DNA of 64,000 bases from NCBI RefSeq assembly GCF_964355755.1, contig NC_092678.1, forward strand, positions 202,422 to 266,421, in the 5' to 3' direction. This stretch comes from Antedon mediterranea (Eukaryota; Animalia; Echinodermata). The notes beneath the pieces are model-generated. The model was not told where the DNA came from. It was given only the letters and a program-made list of their open reading frames with translations, and did no database searches. Shown here in pieces: positions 3,001-29,500 of the stretch. The position numbers were made by a program, and so were the translations under genes. Positions within the stretch are counted from its first letter, which is position 1. Every line of letters begins with the position of its first letter.

Positions 3001-6000
3001 TTATTATACATTAACCAGGCTTGTGATCTGAAGGTCGTGGGTTCGAATCCCACCCGAGAACTACACCCAATTAATTTTATTTTGCTTTTTCATTAAAATG
3101 ACTTTAAGGGAACATGAAACATATTGGGTAAATGTTTATAAAAACATACTCTAAATGAAAAATAACAAGATTTTATACAAAATTTACAATCATATGTCTA
3201 TAATGGAAAATGATTAGCTTTTGTTCACCAAGCTATGAAAGGACATCAATACCAATGAAAGGTAAGCAGGCTTTATAAAACCCTTTATTTCAAAAAGCAA
3301 ATTGGTTGATACAGTTTTATATGACCTAAGTGTTTATACAGATTACTAATGACAACTAAAATATCTCTCAGCTCTTTAAAAAAAAGCCCTTATGAAACGT
3401 CACACTATCAATAGATATTTATTACAGTATTTAAAAAATATTACAAGTACGTTTAGGTTTTGGAATTTAAACAAAAAAATCATGAGCAAAATGACAGCAA
3501 TTCCTCATTTAAAATAAATACTATTCAGTTTTAGTTGTGTGTTAGTTTACCTTTCACAATGAACAGAAGTAAAAGTTGTTACAACAGTAATTGTAAGATA
3601 AATACAAGACAAATTGTATTTCATCTAAGTAATGTAATGTTTATTGAACAAGAACTTAAATGTCATCATCAATTGACTTGTTTAGTTTATTAGGAAAAAC
3701 GTTTTGGAATTAAATATGCAACAACTCACATTTCTTAGCTTGTCTGGAAGCTAAAATAATTAAACATATCACCGCAACATTACACATGAATGATAAATAC
3801 AGACATATTTCTAAAATAGATCTAATGAAAACATTCCATTAAGACCGTTAAATTATGTTTGAATAAATTCAAGTTGAATTTTAAATTAAACCATTGTGAC
3901 GGAGGATGTGTATTACACATGGCACTAATATCATGTTACGTTATTAATGTTACTTTATTTAAAAGAAGAAATGTTTAACTAATGTTCAGGTAAGACAATC
4001 TTTTTGAATTTAAAAAATCTAAACCCAACTAAACCACTAACCAAAGTAACCCAACTAAAATGTCAAAAGTTGTGTAACAAGCAAGTTGATTACCGTGTAA
4101 ACATATAGCTCATGGGGTCCATCATGCAATGTTGTCCCGTCGCCTTTCATCAACTTTACAAACGACATTCCAAATAACTTTCTCATGTTATTAGCTCTAT
4201 TACCTACAGCAAAATAAAATGTACGTATTATAAAGTTCATAAGATAGACAAATAAAACATGCATTATGTTACTGGGTTAGCAAGTATTACAGAATGCCAA
4301 TAATTACTACGTAAATCTGTTGCGATTACGGAGATAACAACTATGAAAACACAAATAAACTATGGTATGCTTGGCTTAAACTTATAGGGAACCCTCCAGT
4401 AAAACATAATAGTCAATAAACATTATCAATACTGCTGAAATAAGTTATAGCAATTAGGGAACCCTGCATATACAGTACCCCTCAATACTTGCTATTCTTA
4501 GGCCCAATCTTACATGCCCTGATCCCTGCGTATCAACCCTTGCTATCCCTACCATTTGGTAATGCTAGCCACCTCATCAATATATTCATTGCATAAACCG
4601 AATGAATCTCTTGGCAAATACATGACAACACTGTTCATATTTAAAATCTTCTCAATTATAAACCGTAGGTCCAGTGTACAGTTATAACCCGTGAGTGTGT
4701 ACTTTAAAGAACCCAGTTCATCATTCGAGACAAGTAGGGAACTGGTTCACAAAACAGCCCTGCATCAGGAGGATTACCACCTATCTCATAGGACGGTGAT
4801 TAATTTACTATTGGTAATCCTTGGCATAAAGAAAAAAAATAAAATAAAATTAAGTGTTTACCTGAACAGTGCCTAAATTCAAAGCGGATATGTGTGTCAT
4901 TGAACTTGTCAATGGGTATCATCAGTTTGATGATCTCGTTCCAGCGCGGCTGGTTGGTATGGCGATACACCACCGATTTATACTCCTCTACTGGCTTCTC
5001 TCCGTCACCAAGACAAATGCATGGCTGCAAAACATTCAACATTTTAATTATTAATGTGAACATTACAAGAATATGAAGAATGATGACATAAGAAATATAT
5101 CGCTAATTTTGTTAAAATGGTATAAATATAATTAAAAGCATTTGTTTAGTTTGTGTTATTCATAAAAAAAAGATCAAATCAGAAAATGTAAATAAATCAA
5201 ATTAACTTTTAAAATGATTTATACAGTAAGAAAAGCATAGTAGTCAACACATAAAACCATTATTTATTTGTTTGTTAAAATTAAAATATGAAAATTTAAA
5301 ATACAAAAGAGAAGACAGTTAAACATAGCACAATAGTTGACACACATAGAACATACAGCATACACGCTCATTTTAACATAGCACAATAGTTGACATATAG
5401 AACATACAGCATACACGCTCATTTTAACATAGCACAATAGTTGACACATAGAACATACAGCATACACGCTCATTTTAACATAGCACAATAGTTGACACAT
5501 AGAACATACAGCATACACGCTCATTTTAACATAGAACAATAGTTGACACATAGAACATACAGCATACACGCTCATTTTAACATAGCACAATAGTTGACAC
5601 ATAGAACATACAGCATACACGCTCATTTTAACATAGAACAATAGTTGACACATAGAACATACAGCATACACGCTCATTTTAACATAGCACAATAGTTGAC
5701 ATATAGAACATACAGCATACACGCTCATTTTAACATAGCACAATAGTTGACACATAGAACATACAGCATACACGCTCATTTTAACATAGAACAATAGTTG
5801 ATATATAGAACATACAGCATACACGCTCATTTTAACATAGCACAATAGTTGACATATAGAACATACAGCATACACGCTCATTTTAACATAGCACAATAGT
5901 TGACATATAGAACATACAGCATACACGCTCATTTTAACATAGCACAATAGTTGACATATAGAACATACAGCATACACGCTCATTTTAACATAGCACAATA

Positions 6001-9000
6001 GTTTACATATAGAACATACAGCATACACGCTCATTTTAACATAGCACAATAGTTGACATATAGAACATACAGCATACACGCTCATTTTAACATAGCACAA
6101 TAGTTGACATATAGAACATACAGCATACACGCTCATTTTAACATAGCACAATAGTTTACATATAGAACATACAGCATACACGCTCATTTTAACATAGCAC
6201 AATAGTTGACATATAGAACATACAGCATACACGCTCATTTTAACATAGCACAATAGTTTACATATAGAACATACAGCATACACGCTCATTTTAACATAGC
6301 ACAATAGTTGACATATAGAACATACAGCATACACGCTCATTTTAACTAGATATAAAATAATAACTTAAAACACAGTAAAACGCCTCCTTCAGGGGACACC
6401 CATTTTAAGCAGACACCCCTTATTAAGCGGATACCCTTTATTAAGCGGACACCCTTATTAACCGGACACCACTATTAAGCAGACACCACTATTAAGCAGA
6501 CACCACTATTAAGCAGACACCACTATTAAGCAGACACCACTATTAAGCGGACACCCCTTATTAAGCGGACACTTCCAATAAGGGAACACTATGTAAATAA
6601 CGTGGGGAAATAAATGTTTTAAAACTATACAGTCGTCTCGATTAACAGGACCTTTTGTTGAATCCTAATGATGGTGTTCCCGTCGTAACAGAGGAGTTTT
6701 ACTTAATTTAAATTGATACATTTAGTAAGTATATTTAAAAGAATAATGTTAAAATTCTAAATAAATAAGAAAAGCAGAATATAATAACCTGATAATAAAT
6801 AAAAAAGTTAAAAATCATCAATTAAATTGTAAAAAGTAAAACAAAGATTTAGTATACAGAATTCAACAATATTTGAGGCAAGTAATAATACATTAAAACA
6901 ATGCCATGCAATATAATATACATATTAAACAACGGGCATCCCATGCAATAGTTAGTAAGGAGAATCCATTTCAAAAAAATTACCTGCATAGAAAAAAAAA
7001 CAAATTTAAACAGCTACAAAAACTATAACATAAAGATGCAAAAAAAAAAATCAAATTCTAAAAGCGTATTTCAAGCGAAACATTCAACAAAACGGTGTGA
7101 GTAGCTTCGGCGACAGACATTAAAGAGTAAAAATGCAACGAACCACAATCTTGTTGTCAGTCAGTACATGCACGATTATTTCAACTTTGTTGCGGTCTTT
7201 TTCGAAATCCGCGGTATTAAGATGAATATAAACATCGTTGCGAACATCTCCTGTAAAATGACAACATTTATGATGAAATTATGACCAATGAAATGACTGT
7301 AATCAGTCAGTTTTAGAACGTACCATTTTACGCATGTTACTTCGGTCAATAACGCACACAGTTACTTCGACATTTTTTCCCGCAGTCTTTCCACCACGGT
7401 CAAATATTGCTCGATCAAGCACAACATAAAGATCGTTTCGTACATCGCCTGAGGTTATAAAAAATTGCTGAACCAAAAACATACAATCAAAGAAAACATG
7501 TTTTGCGGCCATTTTGAAATATAAACAATTTAGAATCATCAACAATTGCTGGCCTTACAAACTCAAGCAACTATTTAGAATTGTATAACCACATTGAAAT
7601 AAAAGTAAAAAATATAAAATAAAGGCTATATTAATGTTCCTATGCAATATCAGTGTTTGTGATAGCAATGCTAACTAAAGCTCTGTCTACACGATTTATC
7701 AAACTTTATGTGACAAAAAAGTGTGATGTGCATAAATATGGTAGTGATATGACATCATTATGTCCATATATGGGCACGTCACATTTTTTTGTCAACTAAA
7801 GTTTGATAGTGTAGACAGAGCTTAATGGTGAGAGTCCTGATGAGTCTACTAGAGTGACTCTACAGATATCAATACTATTCAAATTAATTATGCACATAAC
7901 AGCACAATTGTGTTGAAATACAGTTAAATTCGTGTAGTGCATTAAAGTACTACTAAATAAAGGCGGTCAAACATTACACTATTGACCGAATCAAGTGGAC
8001 GATTGTATAAGGCTAGGGTCACTGCACAACTGTAGAGGGCCTAATCTGAATATCGACAAAAATGATGTAAAAACCTGGCATAATGACATCAGCAAATCCA
8101 AGTTTTCTGGTGATTGACACGTTCTGTTTAAACAGCAATGGCTTTTCAATCTTAAGTTGTTCTAGTTCGCCATGAAGCATTCTCATTTCAATGATAACGC
8201 CTAAGAAAAAAAAAAGTATTAACAAGAGTGAGAGAGAGTTTAATATAGTATAACCCTAATGCCTGGTTTCTATTTAAATATACAGTCAACTCTCCTCAAT
8301 ACCGGACACCTTTGGGCCGGCCAAATATGTCTGGTTTTATGGAAAGTCTGGTACAGTATTTGGAATGTGTTTTAAATGCTAAAAATAAATTTGGGACCTT
8401 TTGGTCCTCAAAAAAAGTCTGGTATTGGGAGAATTTCTGGTTTTCAGAGAGTCCAGTATTGGGAAATTTCTGGTTTTCAGAGAGTCTGGTATTGGGAGAG
8501 TTTCTGGTTTCAGAGAGTCCAGTATTGGGAAAGTTGATTGTGTATTGTTGTTACGTGTCACTAACAAAAGAAGGAAAGTAGAAATCAATCATTTTGTATG
8601 CTATCAGAACATTGGTAGTTAATGAGAAGAAGTGCACGTGCTGAGTGAGTGTGCTTACCTAAGTTGGTGAAGAAGTGCACGTGCTGAGTGAGTGTGTTTA
8701 AGTGCACGTGCTGAGTGAGTGTGCTTAAGTGCACGTGCTGAGTGAGTATGCTTACCTAAGTTGGTGGTACTGGTTGGTAAACTCTTGCTGCTTTTGCCAG
8801 GTGTAATCAGCGTTTCATGAAGCGTAGAGAAATCATTGTCAGTATTTGCATTTACAAGACTGTGAAAACAAATTATTAGAAATTTAAGTCCCATGTGAGG
8901 TAGTTGACTAACGCTGACCTCAGTTAAAGTTTTGCTCCTTGGTTAGCCGACTTATTCTTATCCAGCCATAGAAATTATTAATATAATAATATACTAGATT

Positions 9001-12000: not shown

Positions 12001-15000
12001 ATATTTATAATACTGCTTTTTTATTCAAATGGCATGGTATATCCATTACTTACTTTTGTTGATTTATTGTTTGAAGACTACAGTGTAAAGTAAAGAAATA
12101 CAAAGCTGTTGATACTACTACTAAAAACATACAACGCAATGTTGTCATTCTATTATTATTAATTCTTTTGACCTTGTGAAGAAAGGGGATACACTCAATT
12201 GTTGTGATTGTTTTAAAGATTTGTTAAATAATTACTAAATAAGGGGCAAAAACTGTTTTAATGGTATAAAATATGAACACTAATATTATATTTCATCATC
12301 ATCATCATCTATGGTAAATGGATGTTATAAAATATGAACACTAATATTATATTTCATCATCATCATCATCTATGGTAAATGGATGTTATAAAATATGAAC
12401 ACTAATATTATATTTCATCATCATCATCATCTATGGTAAATGGATGTTATAAAATATGAACACTAATATTATATTTCATCATCATCATCATCTATGGTAA
12501 ATGGATGTTTTGATCAAATAATAAAGTAACCTAAACTTTGTATTTTGCAAAGGGGGTCATTGTTGTTGTTTTTGTGACAAAAAAGAAAAATTTTGAATTT
12601 ACAGCATCAAATATTATCAGATTCAGACCCATTTAGTGACTATCTTTACAATGCTACTATATAACAGTAATAGTATAAAGGTTGAATAGCTGGGCTTAAA
12701 TTGTTTGATTTGAGTGACAGATTACAGTTTACCATTGTCAGAATATGAGGAAACACAACAAGGAAATAAGGTATAAAGAATTCCTACTGTGTACATTAAA
12801 TACTGAGGAAATTCCACACTTGAATAGTACAACACTATGTGGTTTGGATCAATTGTTTCGTAATGCAGTAAATATGAATTACTGCAGAAAGCTATGAATG
12901 TACCGCAGTAGCATGTAAACAAGTAACTTACACTTGACATGTATTTGGTATCTTCCGAACTTCTTAGATGCTATCAAAATAGAACAGAAAAATAAAACAT
13001 TTTAGTTTCAATTCAAATACAATGTGCAACCAATAAAATACAATGTTCAACCTATAAAATACATTAATGTTCAACCTATAAAATACATTAATGTTCAACC
13101 TATAAAATACATTAATGTTCAACCTATAAAATACATTAATGTTCAACCTATAAAATACATTAATTTGCAACCTATAAAATACATTAATTTGCAACCTCTA
13201 AAACACATTAATTTGCAACCTATAAAATACATTAATTTGCAACCTCTAAAACTCATTAATTTGCAACCTCTAAAACTCATTAATTTGCAACCAATGAAAT
13301 ACATTAATGTACAATCTGTTTAATACATTAATCTATAAATGTCATTTAAAAATTGAAAAATAAACTTGACTGGAATACAAACAAAGAGTATACAGTAACT
13401 CACAATTTTATATAGTTGATAAATATTACAAGCGTCGCCGGCAACCATCTCACCACCAATGCGGGGAACTAAATCCAGTTCCAGCTGGTTGTTACCCTGG
13501 TCGATTCGTCCCGTGATCTCCTTCTTAAGCTCCCTCGTCTGCTCCTGCGTTAATAATCCGGAAATCAGTTCTAGCCTTAATTCCATCAGTTTCTCCATAA
13601 GGAGTTGAAGAATGGAGAAATCTCTCGTGTTTCCGACCTGTACAATGAGAAAGAGTCAATTAATCTGAATGAAATGGTTGAAAATTAGCGGATAAACAAG
13701 ATAAATCCAAAGGCAAATTAATGAAAAAATGACAATGCTTTAGGTATCAATGGCTGCATCTCAATGGAGATACAAAATAAAATAAGTACTGAAAAATGAC
13801 AATGCTTTAGGTGTCGGTGGCTGGATCTCAATGGAGATACAAAATAAAATAAGCACTGAAAAAATGACAATGCTGTGGGTATCAGTGGCTGGATCTCAAT
13901 GGAGATACAAAATAAAATAAGCACTGAAAAAATGACAATGCTGTGGGTATCAGTGGCTGGATCTCAATGGAGATACAAAATGACAATGCTGTGGGTATCA
14001 GTGGCTGGATCTCAATGGATACAAAATGACAATGGTGTGGGTATCAGTGGCTGGATCTCAATGGAGATACAAAATGAAAATGCTGTGGGTATCAGTGGCT
14101 GGATCTCAATGGATACAAAATGACAATGCTGTGGGTATCAGTGGCTGGATCTCAATGGAGATACAAAATGACAATGCTGTGGGTATCAGTGGCTGGATCT
14201 CAATGGAGATACAAAATGACAATGCTGTGGGTATCAGTGGCTGGATCTCAATGGAGATACAAAATGACAATGCTGTGGGTATCAGTGGCTGAATCTCAAT
14301 GGAGATACAAAATGACAATGCTGTGGGTATCAGTGGCTGGATCTCAATGGAGATACAAAATGACAATGCTGTGGGTATCAGTGGCTGGATCTCAATGGAG
14401 ATACAAAATAAAAAAATAAAAAAACAAAATCAAAACGATAAAGTAAAAGATGCAATGGTTTAAAACACACAAATGTTTTAAATGTCACGTACCACATATG
14501 CATTCTTTAATATCATGTCCCATTCTCGCAATACTGAAGTAACTTCTCGCCCAATCGGATCTTCAGCTGGTAATACTGTTTCATATCTCCTAAAAAATTC
14601 AAATCAAATATTAAACATTCATACACATTTGATTAAGCATGTTCTTAGCTTTCATTCTAGAGAGGTAAGCTTTGATTTCCAATTTCAGCCTTCTTTCAAC
14701 TTTGTGAAAACAAATATAGATTGACCCAGACTGACCTGGACTTCATGACAACAAGAAATTTAAACTGTGTTAACTTGATTTATCAGGAAGTTATCACACT
14801 TGTAACAGATGAACAGTTTGAGGAAATGTTGCATGATAAAATCTATCAAAAGTTTTAATTCTGAGTTTCAGTTTTTCAAACACAAACTTTATCTCTGAAT
14901 GTCATGCTTTTAGGCCTACAAAGGGAAACCTAACCATTTACACAAATTTTTAAATGCGTGTAAATTGCAATATAAACTGTACACAGTACAATAGGTTGGT

Positions 15001-18000: not shown

Positions 18001-21000
18001 AGAGTTTCTAATGTTGTCAGTCATGTGCACAATGATACATATTGTTTTTGTTTCGCTTTTAAGTCCCTACTTAAAACCACCATTAAGAACAACATATCCT
18101 TCTTATTGTTTCATTAATAACTTCCTTAAAGGTATTAAGTTTCTAAAGATTAAAATGGAAACAATAATGTTAAGTTACCAATGTCGACATTTTAATAAAG
18201 TTCATATTAAAATCCACAATTGAATGTGGTTTGGTAAACAGGTAAAGATTGCCAGAGTGTAATCCTGCCATGACTCAATAGAGTCTCCAATTTTATGGGG
18301 TTCCCATTTTTAGGGAAAGAAATGCAACAGATGACAATGACAGCTAAAATAAAAAATATTTATAAAATAAAAAATATTTATTTTAGCTTTAGTACAGTAT
18401 GATTATGAAACTATATTTAACAAGCGAATTGATAAAATCTAGCTAATTATTATGAATCACACAAATTGGGTAACAAACCATAAATTGATCTACTACATCG
18501 TGTTACACTCGTCATTCATCACAACTCAACACAACATGAAGTGAAACAAGTGTTGTACTATCAAATATAATAGTAACCCATTATTCTTAAACACTATATT
18601 TCGGTTCTACATCTAAAGACAATATTTATGATATATAGTGTAACTACAGGATGTCAAATAAAATGGCAGTTAAGTCAAATTAACAAATATTTAATCAATC
18701 TACTATAGTTTAGAAACAAGTACTGTATAGTAATTATTAATTTAGCAAGAGCATGGCAATTGGAATACTGGGTCATAAAATGAAACATAATACAAACACA
18801 GAATAAATCAATAAACCAATTAAATAAACCAGATGTTACTGCAACTTCCGAAATAAAAATTCTGTTAATAAAATCTGATATAGAATCCATAAATAACAAA
18901 CTTAGCAGCACTTATTCTTAGAAACAACTACCTAGTACCAGTACTGTAGAATAGATGTCAAGGCAAAATATATTATTAGTTTCACTTCACAAATAACATG
19001 TACAGTAGCTCAATTTTAAACAGTACAAACTATGTGTACGTACTTTTTAAACCAAATGCATTGTCAATTCATGGATTTTGTATAATAATTATTATCACTG
19101 AACATGTGTTTTTTATAACAGAGATCTCCATTAAAGGGTATCTTTCATCCAAATTATAAACCAAGGCTGTATCTGAGTAAAAACCAAACATGACATCATA
19201 ATCAACTTGTGGTGATTCATATATTGTACATCAGAATATAACAATCATTTGAACACATGTGTACTATCTATAAACAAATAACCACCAAACAGAAAACTAG
19301 GAGCATGTTTTGATTGTTTTAAAATTATTATTATATTTATAGTTTATATTGTTTGTTTGATTGCACAATAAATTCTACAAATTAGCTATAGTTTTAACAA
19401 ACAACTGCTTTCAATACAATTAGTAAATTTACAATTGAATACAATGTGTAAACACAGAAAATTGGCCAAAAAAAGTACAAACACAAACATGTTGATTTAG
19501 TAGAACTTCCTTATTGGATCATGGACCTACCTGTAAATTGATTGATTGATTCTTTTATTTAAATACATGTGAAATGCTTGGCTTTGCAAGGCACACTATC
19601 TTGTTCTGATTATCAATGGATTCCAAATCATTAAGTTAATATCTAAGCTTCAATGCTTTTTTAATTAAATTTGTATAATTATCCTGGTTTGATTTAAATT
19701 TACAAGCTACTTGAATTTGCATTACAAGTTGAGTCGAATGGCCTAGCTGTTAAGGCAGGGGAGCCGCAAACCATTGTATTATATAATTGAAACAGGTTCA
19801 CAAGTTACTGTACTCCTCAACCATTGTTTGTCTTCTCGCATAATGACTGGATGTCATCTGGACCATGTTTACTTAAAAGAATTCATTTTTTTTTTTCGAA
19901 GAGTGGAGGGTTACCACAGTGAACTGGCCCCTCTCAGCCTCTGTCGTGGATAGGCAAATGAGCGCTGTTTGGTGGCAGCTGTAGGACACAAAGGGACTCT
20001 TAGGGAAAGGGAATGTGTGTCATACAAACCTGTGGACAGGCCTATCCCCAACATTTACATTATAAACAATTACCTGTACAACAAAACTGGATGAAAATTC
20101 TAAAAATTGTTAATGTGGATGTTATTTTGATCTTTATAAATTTCACAACTTAATGTTATTGAATAGTAAAGTTGATGCATAACTGTATTAGCATTGATCT
20201 TTGTTTGTGAGATACAGTAGGCATATTGTACACATTGACAGTATAATCATGTACAATACATTAGAAAGTAAAAGTCTGCCAATCTCCAAGTTGTGTTTAC
20301 AAGCAATAATCATAGTATCCCAGTTTCAAATCCAAGTATCAAATTCACAGATCAATAATTTTATATTTTATTATTATATAACAGTAACACCTAAATATTA
20401 AATTCTTGTCATTTGATTGGACGATTGTGGATCACATGGCGAGCAATAGTACGCACTATAATTCAATAGTACAATTTATTATGGTTTTCTGTTTATTCAT
20501 TTTTTACTAATAAAGACCTTGATGCCACCAGGATAATTTCTGTATGACGAAACTTAGAATGATCTCCAAAGATCCGTTGATCCTGCTCGTAATGGCCGCC
20601 ACCTTGAACACCGGAAGATTCCAAAAACCTCAATCATTTTAAATGAAACAATTAATTTACTATAAGTATAATACAATAATTGTTGTGGAGCTACAATAAT
20701 AAAAAATCCCACATTCAAACATACTAACGTCTGTTTTCTCATTCCCTATTTTTAAATAAACTTCATAGACAGGTTGCTCAATTAATTTACTTGTTTCTAC
20801 TTGTTTCCCGTACACTTTCGTCTACGGGATCGAGGCGAAGCACTCAGTGCTTAAAAGCCCCTCTTAGCAAAAAATCATATTCAATATAGGGTGAAAACTT
20901 CAGCGGGTGGTTGGACCATGCGACGTTAAGTTTTGCTTTGAACAAGTTCACCGTAGCACATGAAACTACATCCGTAGGCAGAGCATTCCATAAGAGAATA

Positions 21001-24000
21001 ACACTCCTGGAGAACGTGTCCCTCCTAATATTAAGACGAGAGCTTTTAAACTTGAGTTTATATGGGTGTCCACGGGTACGAGAGTCTGGATCAAATTCAA
21101 AAAATGTGTTGATCGAAATACGATCAAAACCTTTTACAATCCTAAAAACTTGGATAATATCTGCTCTCTGCCTTCGATATCTCATGGTAGGAAGACCAAG
21201 AATTCTCAAACGCTGTCCATAAGGGATATTACAGTACCTAGGAATCAATCTTGTTGCTCTTTGCTGGACCTTCTCTATTTCATCCTGATCTCGTTTTCTA
21301 ATAGGATTATAAACAGTATTACAATATTCAAGCATTGGCCTGACAATAGACTTATACAGCTTCAAAAATCCATCTTTATTCAAGAATTAATAAAAGATCT
21401 ACAGTATAAATCATTCCTAGTTTCTTATTAGCTCTTTTACAAATATCCGCTACATGCAAATTAAAGATTAAACTAGGATCAAAGGTAACACCTAGATCTT
21501 TCTCCTGCTTTACCTCATGTAGTAAATTATCAGCCATTGAATACACGAAATTGGGATTATCACGACCATAATGAAATACCTTACACTTAGTGTCATTAAA
21601 TGGCAATTGCCAAACATTAGACCAATGGGAAGCACTGTCAATGTCTCTCTGAAATAAATCCGCATCATCAATGTTATTGACCACTCTATACAACTTAGTG
21701 TCGTCTGCAAATAAACGTATATTAGATTCGACAACATCAGGTAAATCGTTAATGAAGATTGAAAATAAGATTGGGCCCACAACGCTACCCTGTGGAATTC
21801 GACTTAATACTGGAGCCTGTGATGATAATTGACCATTGACACTAACTCGTTGTGTTCTATTTGACAAATAATTAGAGAACCAACCTAGTAGATTTCCGAT
21901 AATACCAAAACCTTTCAATTTGACTAGAAGCCTTTAATACACTAAGAGCTCAAGCTAAAATTTGAAGCAATAAGAATAGGAATGATATGAAAGTAAAAGA
22001 TCGTAAAAAACTTTACAAACCCCGCCAGCAATAATAAAGAAATTTCCAACTTCAGAAACACGTCCCACTACCATAATGTGCGCACAATAAACTAGGGGGC
22101 CTAGTATGTTCTCCCATTCCCTATTTTTAAATAAATTTCATGGACAGGTTCTTTATTTGGAAGTACCCTGTAGTACTACAGTAAGTCTGTATTAAACCCA
22201 AAAATCATGGATAAATGTCTCCATGCTTTAAAGTAGAGTACACTGATTAAATTCTTAATCCTATATTTTAATCCCTGTATTCAATAGTATCGGATAAAAG
22301 TAAACAGAGTTTGATCTGTAATTGACAAGGATAAAGGAAACCCTACCCTTGACTGGAGCATACATTATATTTAAGGAACATCTAAGACTGAATGAGTCAT
22401 AAATAAACTTGGCTCAGCTCCACCTTAAGTTCACACTTACCTAAATAGCAAAAATTATACTTAAGAACACTACTGAAAAATGAAGTTCTTTCTTTCTATT
22501 TGGATGTGTGTCTTTTTCGTCAATTCAATTGACAAACAATAAGCCAACAATAAGCCAACAATAAGCCAAAGACTGAAACCAATGTTTTACAATGAAAACA
22601 CAACCACATCAATTGACAAACAATAAGCCAAAGACTGAAACCAATGTTTTACAATGAAAACACAACCACAGAGAAACAAACACTTACAATACTAGTATTA
22701 GCAAATTAGTAATAACATTGTCCTTAAGTTATAAAATTGGGAAAAATATTTTCAGGGGGTGTAGTAATGGGGACATTAGAATCCTGAAATGTAACCAATC
22801 TTAACTAAGTTGCCCCTGCACTGTGTCACCAGGGAGGTGATGATCCCACAGCTCAAATAAACTCTGATATTTATTGCAAGGTGAAACATGAAACATACAA
22901 CATAAGATTAGGGAAAGTACCTAAACATTTTGGAATTTATACAAGGTCAATCGGCCAGACCCCTTAATGTGTGACATGATGCCAACATTAAGGAGTGTAG
23001 GGATGTAGGCCCTATCTAGGGATACAGGTCATAAGGTCATGGGGGTCATGTTGTACCACACACTAACAATTACTAGAACATTTAATACAGAATTTAATAC
23101 GGTATCAAGACAGTCTACAGTGAAACTATGTTGATCGTGATATGGCAGATTCTTATCAATAATTAGGTCAGATATTTGCTTATTATGCATTTTAATTTAT
23201 TTTTTTCCAAGGATGACAAACCAAAATAGTTTTTACAATAAAATGTGTGTAGATCTTGAAAGTAACTATACTCCTCAATTCGTCTCTTTAACAAACAATT
23301 TGTAAGATAATTACTGTAATTACTTTTAATGAACTGTACATGGCCTACAATGTATTGACTTACAGTACAATATATCGAATTGTATTGATGTTTTTACATG
23401 GTTTTTTTTATTATGAATGTAACGGGGAGCTGAGTCTCACATTTTACAATTATTATGTGACAATAAAATATATCTATGTCTATGTCTAATTATCATTCTG
23501 TCTTCTAAAAGTCTAAGGAAAAATCTATTTTAAAAAATAAATTTTATAATTTGTGAAACAAGCATTTATATTTTAAACAAAATATTTTTTTCAAAGCAAA
23601 AACAATTTGTAATATACTTTTATAATAAACTTTAAATAAAGAAGTAATGAATAATTTAGTTCTGAATCACATTTGGACATTTTACATATTAATCTTCGGG
23701 AAACTACAACAAAATTTAAATAAAACTGCAGACATTGATAAAATTGGGGAAATGTACCTAAAACTACAGAGTGTTCAATTCAATAGTGTTAGCCCTCCAA
23801 AGATAATACATTTACATATAATAGATTTTGATTAGATAACATTCATAGGAAAATACAAGTATGATTTTTGTACCTATCATGTTTGCTATCAGGAAGATAA
23901 TAACAATGCAACTATTTAGTGTATATACAGGTAAAACAATATACTTTATTTATTTTATATGTACAGTGTAACAACAGTAATATTTCCTGTTATTGTTTGC

Positions 24001-24376
24001 AATATGATAAATAACAATTTCAAGATGTACACAATTTTTTGGTTTTATTTTATTTTATAAATATTTAATTACATCTAGATAATATTATTAAGATGTTGGA
24101 TATAAATAAAAAATTACTATAGAATAGGCTGCTAGTGCCTGGGCGTTATTGTGAAGCCTTAGCTAGATATGCACAAAATACAGACGATAAGCAGCAGGAG
24201 GAAGTTAACACATCCCCCTCGAGAAGTGTCAGCCGCAAAACACCCAACCGAGGTAAATAAAGGCACGAGGATATGCATTTACATAATGCACCAAATGTCA
24301 CAATATTACGAGAAAATATAAACACATTATTAATCTTACCAATTCCATATTTCTTCTCGGTCGTTCTAACCCACAT
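1..24376 (-). CDS. DOCK3: Dedicator of cytokinesis DOCK3/DOCK4-like (DOCK-B/sponge) Rac GEF, N-terminal part (SH3, helical region, DHR-1 C2 domain, start of ARM repeats); continues beyond the left edge
   Basis: Exons assembled with GT-AG ends and consistent phases: 24340-24376, 16601-16693, 16208-16248, 15221-15276, 14493-14589, 13404-13637, 12932-12970, 10733-10872, 10107-10188, 9805-9940, 9323-9395, 8756-8859, 8075-8200, 7324-7448 (or 7144-7250), 4862-5024, 4094-4203, 2610-2784, 2002-2099, 1555-1638, 1103-1203, 698-826, 301-409, 1-181. Motifs MWVRTTEKKYGIA, GLKLEIG, GIFPSN, LDLVPR, YRRPFGVG, RKLGFADVIMPGDVRNDLY, PRWNEIIK, DGTTLHDGPHELYVY, STKLTQNVNLL, LQDVLDTLF match the DOCK3/4 family from recall. 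DOCK3 versus DOCK4 cannot be resolved; probably a co-ortholog. Confidence 0.93.
913..1076. mobile_element. PIF/Harbinger-like MITE, family A
   Basis: TIR AGCTCTGTCTACACTATCAAACT at both ends (1 mismatch), TAA on both flanks; other copies at 7679-7822, ~14990-15144, ~34890-35029, ~41820-41957. Confidence 0.75.
1221..1468 (-). mobile_element. tRNA-derived SINE (5'-truncated)
   Basis: Minus strand: B-box-like TTCGAATCC, central CACCCAGGTGTATAAATGAGAACCCAG, tail GGCGCTATATAAAT then (TAT)n; second copy at ~8980-9260. Confidence 0.65.
1646..1785. repeat. 27-bp minisatellite x5 abutting a DOCK splice acceptor
   Basis: Unit AAAACGAAACATGTACGGTATTAATCT. Confidence 0.95.
3730..3750 (-). CDS. Candidate 21-nt DOCK microexon (LPDKLRN)
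   Basis: attattttag|CTTCCAGACAAGCTAAGAAAT|gtgagt inside a phase-0 intron; frame preserving. Confidence 0.5.
5321..6346. repeat. 51-bp minisatellite, ~20 copies
   Basis: Unit AACATAGCACAATAGTTGACAYATAGAACATACAGCATACACGCTCATTTT; explains ORF 5264-6340. Confidence 0.97.
6372..6704. mobile_element. Tc1/mariner(pogo)-like MITE with internal 19-bp repeats
   Basis: Ends CAGTAAAACGCCTC / GAGGAGTTTTACT are imperfect inverted repeats; internal TATTAAGCRGACACC repeats. Confidence 0.5.
7144..7250 (-). CDS. DOCK DHR-1 mutually exclusive exon B (paralogous copy): GDVRNDVYIHLNTADFEKDRNKVEIIVHVLTDNKIV
   Basis: 107 nt, phase 1 to 0, acceptor cattttacag, donor GTTCGT, no stop codon, homologous to exon A and 73 nt from it. 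Confidence 0.8.
7324..7448 (-). CDS. DOCK DHR-1 mutually exclusive exon A (canonical): GDVRNDLYVVLDRAIFDRGGKTAGKNVEVTVCVIDRSNMRKM
   Basis: 125 nt, phase 1 to 0, acceptor ataacctcag, donor GTACGT. Confidence 0.9.
7679..7822. mobile_element. PIF/Harbinger-like MITE, family A
   Basis: AGCTCTGTCTACAC...GTGTAGACAGAGCT with TAA on both flanks. Confidence 0.75.
8283..8540. mobile_element. Tc1/mariner(pogo)-like MITE, family B
   Basis: TA-CAGTCAACTCTC...GAAAGTTGATTG termini, internal ~33-bp repeats; inverted sister copy at 9549-9726. Confidence 0.65.
8980..9260 (-). mobile_element. tRNA-derived SINE, same family as 1221-1468
   Basis: Shares long stretches (TGGAAACATACTCCCATAATGCTGCTAGTAATC) with the 1221-1468 copy; GTTCGAATCC B-box on the minus strand. 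Confidence 0.65.
9549..9726. mobile_element. Tc1/mariner(pogo)-like MITE, family B
   Basis: TA|CAGTCAACTCTCC...GGAGAGCTGACTG|TA. Confidence 0.7.
12054..12077 (-). CDS. Candidate 24-nt DOCK microexon (SSNNKSTK)
   Basis: ttctttactttacactgtag|TCTTCAAACAATAAATCAACAAAA|gtaagt inside a phase-0 intron; frame preserving. Confidence 0.55.
12265..12508. repeat. 61-bp tandem repeat x4
   Basis: Unit includes TATAAAATATGAACACTAATATTATATTT(CAT)nCTATGGTAAATGGATGT. Confidence 0.95.
13015..13335. repeat. 24-bp minisatellite, ~13 copies
   Basis: Unit CAACCTATAAAATACATTAATGTT and variants. Confidence 0.92.
13722..14410. repeat. 48-bp minisatellite (with longer early units)
   Basis: Unit AAAATGACAATGCTGTGGGTATCAGTGGCTGGATCTCAATGGAGATAC. 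Confidence 0.95.
15800..16095. repeat. Degenerate ~16-23-bp minisatellite
   Basis: Core TATGGTCAATCATAC. Confidence 0.9.
20844..21932 (-). mobile_element. 5'-truncated, frameshifted CR1/L2-type non-LTR retrotransposon (C-terminal RT and downstream domain) in DOCK intron 1
   Basis: IPQGSVVGPILFSIFINDL, LFADDTKL, EKDLGV, IEKVQQRATRL, RTRGHPYKL, WNALP motifs; two frames joined near 21380-21410. Confidence 0.9.
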
Positions 24377-26212: not shown

Positions 26213-26571
26213 GTAGCATGCCAGGCATGAAATTAATACCTAACAATAATATTAAGCTCGCAGGTCTAGCCTATAAATTAATCATACAATCATTTTTTAA
26301 AGCCACTGCAGTTAAGTCTACATGGCCTACGGTAAGCCACATTCAGAATCAGAAATATATAATTTTTGTTTTGAGAATGAAAGAGATTTATACATATTGG
26401 TCGAAAACATTACATTAAGGTTTAATACGACTGTTCTACGACACTCACACTAGAATAATTTCCGTAATTTTTGTTTTGTTTTTTAAATTTAAATGTTAAT
26501 TTGCTTGATTGAAGAAAGCAATTTTTTTGATAATTTTTTTTTATGATATTCAGCAGGAAAAGATTATTGAA

Positions 26572-29500
26572 ATGAGCTCATCACAGAGACGGTGCTGTGG
26601 AGGATCACATAGCCAATCAGAATGCACAACAAATGAAAAAAGTAAAAGGAAAATGAGTCGAAAGAGAGAAGGAAATAAACTAGAAAATGACAACTCACTT
26701 GCATTAGATCTCAGCAAAGTTGAAAACAATAATATGTTACCACAACCAAAGAAGTCACCACGTCTAAACAGAACATCTGAAAGAATACCGGCGGTATCAA
26801 CATTTAGACAAAAATCAACAAAAATACCAAATTCGGGTCAAATACCAAAAAGTACAAAGTTGAGACATGTTATGGACAATTCCTTAAGGAAAAAAACAGT
26901 TGCGAGACCTCACAGCAGTGTCGCAAAGGTAAGTAACTTAACAAAGGACAGGTCAGGATGGATGCGACCTGGAACAGCTCCTCTGATTAAAGTGACAGAG
27001 CCATTACCATCAACCCCTCTGATAGAGGTGACGGAGCCATTGCCACCAACAACTCTGATAGAGGTGACAGCGCCATTGCCACCAACAACTCCTTTGATTG
27101 AGGTGACAGCGCCATTCACAGCTTGGTCAGAAACAGAGCTTCTAGAAGCAATCGAAAAAACAAGTCTTCTTGAAGATGAAGATTCACAATCAGTAATTAC
27201 AGGTAACAACTAAATATTTATACATGATTTTTCAATGCTCTCAAACAAAATAAACTAAACAAGTCTTCTTGAAAATGAAGATTCACAATCAGTAATTACA
27301 GGTAACAACTCAATATTTATACATGATTTTTCAATGCTCAAACAAAATAAACTAAACAAGTCTTCTTGAAGATGAAGATTCACAATCAGTAATTACAGGT
27401 AACAACTAAATATTTATACATGATTTTTCAATGCTCAAACAAAATAAACTAAACAAGTCTTCTTGAAGATGAAGATTCACAATCAGTAATTACAGGTAAC
27501 AACTCAATATTTATACATGATTTTTCAAACAAAATTAACTTTTTGCATTAGAATTCTATGTTAACAGATATAACGATTTTAGTGTTTATTTATAGATACA
27601 TCATTACTGCCTTGTTCAACATTGAATGATGATAGTGAAGACGACGAGCAACACAAACTTAAAGACCCGATTCAGAAGTTGATGGAAATTCCACCGGATG
27701 ACGGAGAATATGACACCGATCTTGACGAAGAATTCCCTGCCGGTACATATAGCTTCTCATTATGTGCATTAATAACCTTAAAAACATGTTTTAATGTCTT
27801 TTGTTATATAAAAATATTATAAACTTTTAAAATTCAGGTCAACAAAAGGAATACGACTCTACAGGACGTACCATCTATTTAGAGCAGTGTCAAGCTGAAG
27901 GTAATATTATCTTGTGATATAAAATTCAAAATCAAATGATAATCAATTCGGTTACATAAGTACACAAAGTTTTTAAAATACCAGTTCTAGTATTCATGTT
28001 TACTGCCTATCTTTCTACCACAGTTTACCTAACATTGGATTATGTAAGTTAGTTGTATCACTGTTTATATTAGTTACACTTCAATCAAGTGCACTATGTA
28101 TTAAATTATTTTAAATTATTAATTTACTGCTTTGCTTCTAACTTATAAATGTTTATAGCATAGAATATCTTTTAGTTCTTCATTTTTTCTTCACATAATC
28201 CAGCAATTCCTTCAGAATAATGTAATAATATAATATGTGGATAATAAACACTGCCAGGCTAGGATAGGTAGCAATTGAAGGTGCAGAGCATGGTAATGCT
28301 AGGTATTAATATGTCAATGTACATTTTGTTTACAGCATATTGTATACAGCACAAAGCACTGCTGTATATATTGCTATATATTTGTTTACAGCATATTGTA
28401 TACAGCACAAAGCACTGCTGTATATATTGCTATATATTTGTTTACAGCATATTGTATACAGCACAAAGCACTGCTGTATATATTGCTATATATTTGTTTA
28501 CAGCATATTGTATACAGCACAAAGCACTGCTGTATATATTGCTATATATTTGTTTACAGCATATTGTATACAGCACAAAGCACTGCTGTATATATTGCTA
28601 TATATTTGTTTACAGCATATTGTATACAACACAAAGCACTGCTGTATATATTGCTATATATTTGTTTACAGCATATTGTATACAACACAAAGCACTGCTG
28701 TATATATTGCTATATATTTGTTTACAGCATATTGTATACAGCACAAAGCACTGCTGTATATATTGCTATATATTTGTTTACAGCATATTGTATACAGCAC
28801 AAAGCACTGCTGTATATATTGCTATATATTTGTTTACAGCATATTGTATACAGCACAAAGCACTGCTGTATATATTGCTATATATTTGTTTACAGCATAT
28901 TGTATACAGCACAAAGCACTGCTGTATATATTGCTATATATTTGTTTACTGCATATTGTATACAGCACAAAGCACTGCTGTATATATTGCTATATATTTG
29001 TTTACAGCATATTGTATACAACACAAAGCATTGCTGTATATATTGCTATATATTTGTTTACAGCATATTGTATACAACACAAAGCACTGCTGTATATATT
29101 GCTATATATTTGTTTACAGCATATTGTATACAGCACAAAGCACTGCTGTATATATTGCTATATATTTGTTTACAGCATATTGTATACAACACAAAGCACT
29201 GCTGTATATATTGCTATATATTTGTTTACAGCATATTGTATACAACACAAAGCACTGCTGTATATATTGCTATATATTTGTTTACAGCATATTGTATACA
29301 GCACAAAGCACTGCTGTATATATTGCTATATATTTGTTTACAGCATATTGTATACAGCACAAAGCACTGCTGTATATATTGCTATATATTTGTTTACAGC
29401 ATATTGTATACAGCACAAAGCACTGCTGTATATATTGCTATATATTTGTTTACAGCATATTGTATACAACACAAAGCACTGCTGTATATATTGCTATATA

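Follow-up and report, generated by a model that had tools for sequence, protein, structure and literature searches.

The locus and its annotated proteins

The window analyzed here, a 64-kb stretch of Antedon mediterranea DNA, carries part of a DOCK gene, and the first 852 residues of the gene product map exon by exon onto positions 24376 to 2. Two protein forms are annotated, and both have the Pfam domains SH3_2, DOCK_N, DOCK-C2 (DHR-1), TPR_DOCK (ARM), and DHR-2 lobes A to C, which is the domain order of the DOCK-A/B family (SH3, DOCK_N, DHR-1, ARM, DHR-2). As the nearest relative is a DOCK3-like protein from Anneissia japonica, a feather star (72% over residues 380 to 620; the next match reaches 54%), we infer a DOCK3/4 ortholog. 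Among the best 120 of 980 matches, those that are named bear a DOCK3/4 label, and the gene likely encodes a DOCK3/4-type Rac activator. No DOCK3 or DOCK4 entry was found among the matches of a solved-structure search.

At one position in DHR-1, three of the four annotated proteins carry an exon that we designate A, the fourth (P0004) carries a second exon, B, and none carries both. The DOCK-C2 domain scores 179.6 bits with A and 162.0 with B, and the catalytic DHR-2 domain is identical in the two forms. Used as the query in a word-based protein search, exon B has a sole match, the gene's own 1939-residue product, whose cluster holds four unnamed NCBI/UniRef members. Both isoforms are already in the automated public annotation, and the pair is not hidden. 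Isoform models of the NCBI type rest on RNA evidence. The first-pass annotation remarked that exon B is missing from the list of open reading frames; this is so, because its stop-to-stop frame is only 52 codons long, yet the exon is present in the public annotation.

Two further variable segments were seen in the gene: a 24-nt in-frame microexon at 12054-12077 (-), skipped in annotated protein P0007, and, outside the window, a 19-residue cassette in the C-terminal tail (about residues 1686 to 1704 of P0005), which one of the four annotated isoforms lacks. The first coding intron holds fragments of a reverse-transcriptase retroelement, 20844-21933 (-), in which the frame at 21376-21930 matches Pfam RVT_1 (E 7e-13). 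Very high-copy dispersed repeats lie in the DOCK introns at 7678-7823 and 8296-8466, the former near-palindromic and MITE-like with 45-nt inverted arms, and a tandem array of about 23 copies of a roughly 44-nt unit occupies 5340-6350 in the intron downstream of exon B. On the opposite strand, a neighboring gene contributes a 234-codon open frame, 26509-27213 (+), with no Pfam match.

A tandem pair of DHR-1 exons

Exons A and B lie next to each other between two constitutive exons (Table 1). The coordinates, lengths, phases, and splice sites first proposed for them are as stated when checked again on the sequence: both exons are bounded by AG and GT, run from phase 1 to phase 0, and are free of stops. 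Placed singly between the constitutive exons, either one leaves the frame open. Inclusion of both brings a premature stop inside B, at codon 107 of 209, while skipping of both brings a stop five codons into the downstream exon. At the DNA level the exons are clearly homologous (global score z = 7.6, reached by none of 1,000 shuffles), so that the initial description of two homologous exons, in frame alone and out of frame together, stands. The introns around them show no clear homology, with z = 1.8 for the upstream comparison (50 of 1,000 shuffles reach the score) and z = -0.8 for the downstream one.

Table 1. Positions of the exon pair, its neighbors, and the L1 loops in the window
Feature	Length	Position	Strand	Remarks
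Upstream constitutive exon		8075-8200	-	End of DOCK_N / C2 region; ends in phase 1; in 4/4 annotated proteins
Exon A	125 nt	7324-7448	-	DHR-1 strand 1, L1 loop, and strand 2; conserved type
L1 loop of exon A	10 codons	7372-7401	-	From alignment to PDB 3L4C and model
Intron between exons A and B	73 nt	7251-7323	-	
Exon B	107 nt	7144-7250	-	Diverged copy of exon A
L1 loop of exon B	6 codons	7186-7203	-	3 basic and 2 acidic residues; without Asn before strand 2
Downstream constitutive exon		4862-5024	-	Starts in phase 0; DHR-1 core

A profile of the exon run over six frames of the window finds exactly two copies, the next match having E = 0.49, and no third copy was found in the window or in nine metagenome loci. 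DNA contigs from one sample, which may be the assembly's own source, run unbroken across both exons (6519-7724) with zero differences, placing the pair in cis.

That the pair is real and mutually exclusive, as the first-pass annotation had claimed, agrees with the frame logic and the annotated proteins, which carry A or B but never both; we regard it as very probable. Two processes could enforce exclusivity. First, steric hindrance across the 73-nt intron would block splicing of A to B. At 73 nt, this intron is shorter than its mapped neighbors in the gene, which measure about 119 nt or longer, and branch-point-like motifs, which are guesses, lie 17, 21, 35, and 50 nt from the A donor. A steric limit of under 50 nt has been used for human mutually exclusive pairs, as given in the available portion of PMC5740500, and the motifs lie at or inside 50 nt by this criterion from human data. 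Second, nonsense-mediated decay would remove messages that contain both exons or neither. As for docking or selector RNA pairing, the region 6640-8080 contains 25 inverted pairs, none of which stood out; the arms of a dispersed repeat make up the two longest, and the others are short, AT-rich matches.

Exon B in assembled transcripts

The first-pass annotation had suggested looking for RNA that spans the joints of both exons. Five sequencing runs were found, none of them recorded as RNA. One, X1, was classed as RNA from its spliced contig: record 1 joins the downstream exon, at its 4862 end, directly to the 4203 end of the next exon (4094-4203), and extends 30 letters past position 5024. Record 4 of the same run is 136 nt long with a depth of 64.3, and covers exon B (7249-7144) plus 30 unlisted letters. 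Five placements of the unlisted letters were compared against five observed bin depths, and a sole placement matches all five (18.1 versus 18.1, 57.1 versus 58.0, 14.2 versus 14.1, 19.0 versus 19.8, and 67.9 versus 67.9); in it the upstream exon supplies the start of record 4, and exon B the end of record 1. A join of A to B as the start of record 4 does not fit the depths. The assembled message in X1 thus reads from the upstream exon through B to the downstream exon. Splicing of B to both neighbors, by 8075-7250 and 7144-5024 joins, fits these data, being deduced from contig ends and bin depths rather than read directly across the joints.

Exon A appears in X1 only within a contig that includes the upstream intron, at a depth of 14.5 versus 9.8 to 13.7 for intron pieces. 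The end of this contig coincides with the A donor, which hints weakly at splicing at that site; splicing of exon A otherwise comes from the annotation, in three of the four proteins. Contigs drop rare forms and show presence, not levels or absence, and X1 is one run.

Selection and age of the two copies

To compare A with B, we used 28 surely aligned codon pairs from this one species, leaving out the loop and the 3' end. The proportions of changed sites are pS 0.65 and pN 0.37, giving dS of about 1.5 and dN of about 0.5, and hence a dN/dS of about 0.35, a rough value given silent sites near saturation. Base identity is lowest at third codon positions (11/28, versus 16 and 20 of 28 at the others), and half of the 14 identical residues are encoded by different codons. 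In simulations of neutral decay, the frame and the splice dinucleotides were spared in 0.2% of runs (distance 1.2) to 3% (distance 0.5). The selection on B that was first suggested from its retained residues agrees with the dN/dS and with the rarity of such survival. As judged from these comparisons, both copies appear to be under purifying selection, with B having diverged fast and yet remained constrained.

Exon A is identical to the Anneissia exon at 34 of 42 residues and to B at only 14 of 36; B, in turn, is closer to starfish exons (17 to 18 of 36) than to A. In the phylogenetic tree, A and the Anneissia exon fall together (support values of 76/79 and 81/80, not starred), and the branch leading to B is roughly nine to eleven times as long as that of A (1.34 to 1.62 versus 0.15). 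Topology tests weakly reject a recent duplication, in which A and B would be sisters (p-AU 0.036 and 0.041; 42 columns and a long branch). The duplication is probably old, and would predate the split from Anneissia, in whose genome B should then be either unannotated or lost. With the long branch and 42 columns, the position of B shifts between runs.

We also considered B as an ancient exon type common to brittle stars, an idea that arose from a similar-looking loop in metagenome locus L009. The data do not support it: B scores 74 to 80 against starfish exons and 66 against L009, and a clade of B with brittle-star exons is not favored, if not rejected either (p-AU 0.079). The L1 loop DNA of B matches that of A at 8 of 9 bases out of frame, and this match suggests that two compensating deletions may have shaped the B loop (chance level 0.04, post hoc).

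Distribution among relatives

An orthologous exon at the same protein position, in a single annotated version each, is present in Anneissia, Asterias, Acanthaster, Lytechinus, Strongylocentrotus, and Amphiura; for Anneissia there is a single protein model. Ten clusters of relatives (starfish, sea urchins, brittle star, amphioxus, and fishes) list 109 members. We examined 102 of these, the other seven being fragments or other-species entries; two of the 102 lacked the exon region. No alternative exon version was found in these 102 members, which differ between species by a few residues only. A HMMER search with B over 1.84 billion representatives returned only itself, although isoforms of other species could hide under A-type representatives, and a word-based search with exon A among longer proteins gave two candidates, none significant.

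Nine metagenome loci each have at most one copy of the exon. Only L008 and L009 include both flanking exons with introns; L003 and L005 are partial, L001, L002, and L004 are intronless here, and L006 and L007 have other intron positions. L009 is a brittle-star-like contig with both flanking introns whole and one exon copy. Its upstream exon is identical to that of Amphiura, and its exon at the swapped position (772-891) is identical to the Amphiura one at 28 of 40 residues. Farther along this contig, at 3600-3950, an intron contains several decaying repeats of the end of the exon before it, a later DHR-1 exon.

Going by these sequence collections, the exon pair is apparently limited to crinoids. 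According to the first-pass annotation, such a pair is not known from vertebrate DOCK3/4, and none was found in the vertebrate data checked, which comprise fishes and two human catalogues.

The L1 loop in the two forms

The swapped exon encodes DHR-1 strand 1, the L1 loop, strand 2, and the following turn. AlphaFold2 models of the two DHR-1 forms, from 24-row alignments, reach pLDDT 75.2 for B and 75.7 for A with the same strand order. The top match of both, in the structure prediction that had been proposed for the two forms, is the DHR-1 domain of DOCK1, PDB 3L4C (E 1.4e-16 and 2.5e-17), and forms A and B are predicted to share one DHR-1 fold.

Compared with A, B lacks four residues in L1 and two in the turn between strands 2 and 3. 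The shortening of L1 from 10 to 6 residues, as first claimed, is borne out by both models and alignments. The claimed change in charge pattern is also seen, as the end of strand 1 together with L1 has a net charge of +2 in A and 0 in B. Aligned to PDB 3L4C, exon A places a basic residue at each of the three positions that hold an L1 lysine in DOCK1. The L1 of B retains three basic residues as well, which fall within 6 positions and not over 10; the DOCK1-spaced triad of A is not present.

To place these differences, we compared 223 proteins, mostly fish DOCK3, in 215 of which the motif was readable. Among the 215, only B has a six-residue L1, and only B has no Asn before strand 2. An Arg or Lys in strand 1 is present in 212; B, with Thr there, is one of the three without. 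In echinoderms L1 ranges from 8 to 11 residues, with divergent brittle-star-type loops of 9 to 11, while sea urchin DOCK3/4 has an 8-residue L1 with a net charge of 0, like B, as its only annotated form. The DOCK3/4 loop is nearly invariant in chordates, and sea urchins and brittle stars have each shortened or rewritten it independently (P0011-P0013, L009). This variation in urchins and brittle stars implies that echinoderm DOCK3/4 tolerates change in L1.

What L1 does is best described for DOCK1 and DOCK8. According to the portions of PMC7893821 available to us, L1 holds most of the basic residues that bind phosphoinositides in both proteins. The DOCK1 model has PIP3 bound by three basic L1 residues and one in L3, whereas in DOCK8 the strand-1 Arg and two L1 residues bind PI(4,5)P2. 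The same portions state that single substitutions in DOCK8 abolish lipid binding in assays, and that L1 residues explain its different lipid preference. The DOCK1 DHR-1 residue assignments used here are those relayed in PMC7893821, rather than those of the structure paper (Premkumar 2010).

What the exon choice may change

We lean toward the reading that form B binds phosphoinositides differently from form A, probably with lower or less PIP3-selective affinity; altered lipid binding by form B is plausible from the residues that B lacks. A tandem duplication of an exon of which only one copy fits the frame would yield two DHR-1 domains differing in L1. Copy A would have stayed conserved, with the DOCK1-like basic L1 triad and the strand-1 Arg typical of DOCK3/4, while B would have lost the strand-1 Arg, four loop residues, and the conserved Asn, leaving a reshaped lipid pocket. 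The choice of exon may then tune the membrane site at which an otherwise identical Rac GEF activates Rac.

A possible but rather unlikely alternative is that the two loops have roughly equal affinity for the same lipids, B having been kept because the copies serve different tissues or stages and its differences being tolerated drift in a loop that is labile in echinoderms. The three basic L1 residues kept in B agree with such equal binding, as do the urchin and brittle-star orthologs, for which shortened or rewritten loops are the only annotated form. Drift of this kind is, however, at odds with a branch some nine to eleven times that of A (1.34 to 1.62 versus 0.15), and a pocket that lost an otherwise invariant Asn, the strand-1 Arg, and four loop residues together would hardly be expected to stay the same, when in DOCK8 single L1 substitutions abolish lipid binding (available portions of PMC7893821).

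The consequences of the swap might instead lie mainly outside the lipid pocket, in a surface for protein partners or in how DHR-1 packs onto the C2 domain before it, which we consider improbable. The exon does replace strands 1 and 2 and the turn after them, which is two residues shorter in B, leaving 14 of 36 residues shared, and the DHR-1 of DOCK5 packs against the preceding C2 domain by a sheet edge, as described in the accessible text of PMC8294757. Yet the largest change is in L1, the known lipid pocket, and the C2 interface in that text is strand 4, which the shared downstream exon encodes.

Least probable by far is that one exon is a non-functional remnant, either B as a decaying pseudo-exon or A as an unused one, with the annotation reflecting splicing noise: B has no relative in the collections searched and A is absent from spliced X1 contigs (which is not evidence of absence), but B forms an assembled spliced path in X1 at several times the intron depth and, with silent change near saturation, still has intact splice sites and a dN/dS of about 0.35, and A is identical to the Anneissia exon at 34 of 42 residues and occurs in three of the four annotated proteins.

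Returning to different phosphoinositide binding by the two forms, a stronger version, which we hold as doubtful, is that exon B turns a PIP3-reading DOCK3/4 into a reader of another lipid, such as PI(4,5)P2 or PA, or of none, with a choice that is cell-type specific. If true, a splice-controlled lipid switch would be seen for the first time in a DOCK DHR-1 domain, and the pair would serve the family as a natural loop-swap experiment, with the L1 difference between DOCK1 and DOCK8 reproduced within one gene.

Relation to known exon pairs and significance

The pair has the standard arrangement of mutually exclusive exons that arose by tandem duplication; what appears to be new is its occurrence in a DOCK gene. 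In humans, 236 events of mutually exclusive exons derived from tandem duplication have been described (PMC8373072 / PMC9741552), and a survey of mutually exclusive exons lists 629 clusters (PMC5740500, in its available portion). Like pairs of the FGFR2, PKM, and SNAP25 type, A and B are adjacent homologous exons with the same phases and with lengths not divisible by three, and, as in human tandem pairs, the intervening intron is short and the isoforms are identical outside the swapped region. In contrast, predicted ligand-binding residues are usually conserved in human tandem pairs (80.6%), whereas here a ligand loop is shortened and rewritten. No DOCK gene was matched in the supplement of PMC8373072, in which the controls SNAP25, PKM, and FGFR2 were found, and none of DOCK1 to DOCK5 was found in 10 supplements of PMC5740500.

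Other DOCK genes have likewise been diversified by alternative exons: the accessible parts of the respective papers describe mutually exclusive first exons in DOCK9 (PMC7551865) and a truncated splice variant of DOCK5 (PMC7998272), and the title of Kanai 2008 names a DOCK4 splice variant as a PIP3-binding protein. As far as these parts describe them, the DOCK9 and DOCK5 events alter the N terminus or truncate the protein, and neither swaps a duplicated internal DHR-1 exon. In the full-text literature searched, largely open-access, we found no report of a duplicated DHR-1 exon in a DOCK gene. The DHR-1 structures of DOCK1 (PDB 3L4C) and DOCK8 (7CLX/7CLY) have the same C2-type fold as the models of both isoforms; in mammals, different L1 loops occur in different DOCK genes, while here two L1 loops occur in one gene.

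The reach of the finding is limited, as it apparently concerns one lineage and both proteins are already in the automated annotation. Among mutually exclusive exons, the pair would be unusual in having a ligand-binding loop rebuilt and not conserved. DHR-1 decides the membrane site of Rac activation, and the rules that link its sequence to lipid preference have been drawn from few structures (DOCK1 and DOCK8). Two natural domains that differ in nothing but strand 1, L1, and strand 2 would offer a clean reagent with which to test these lipid rules.
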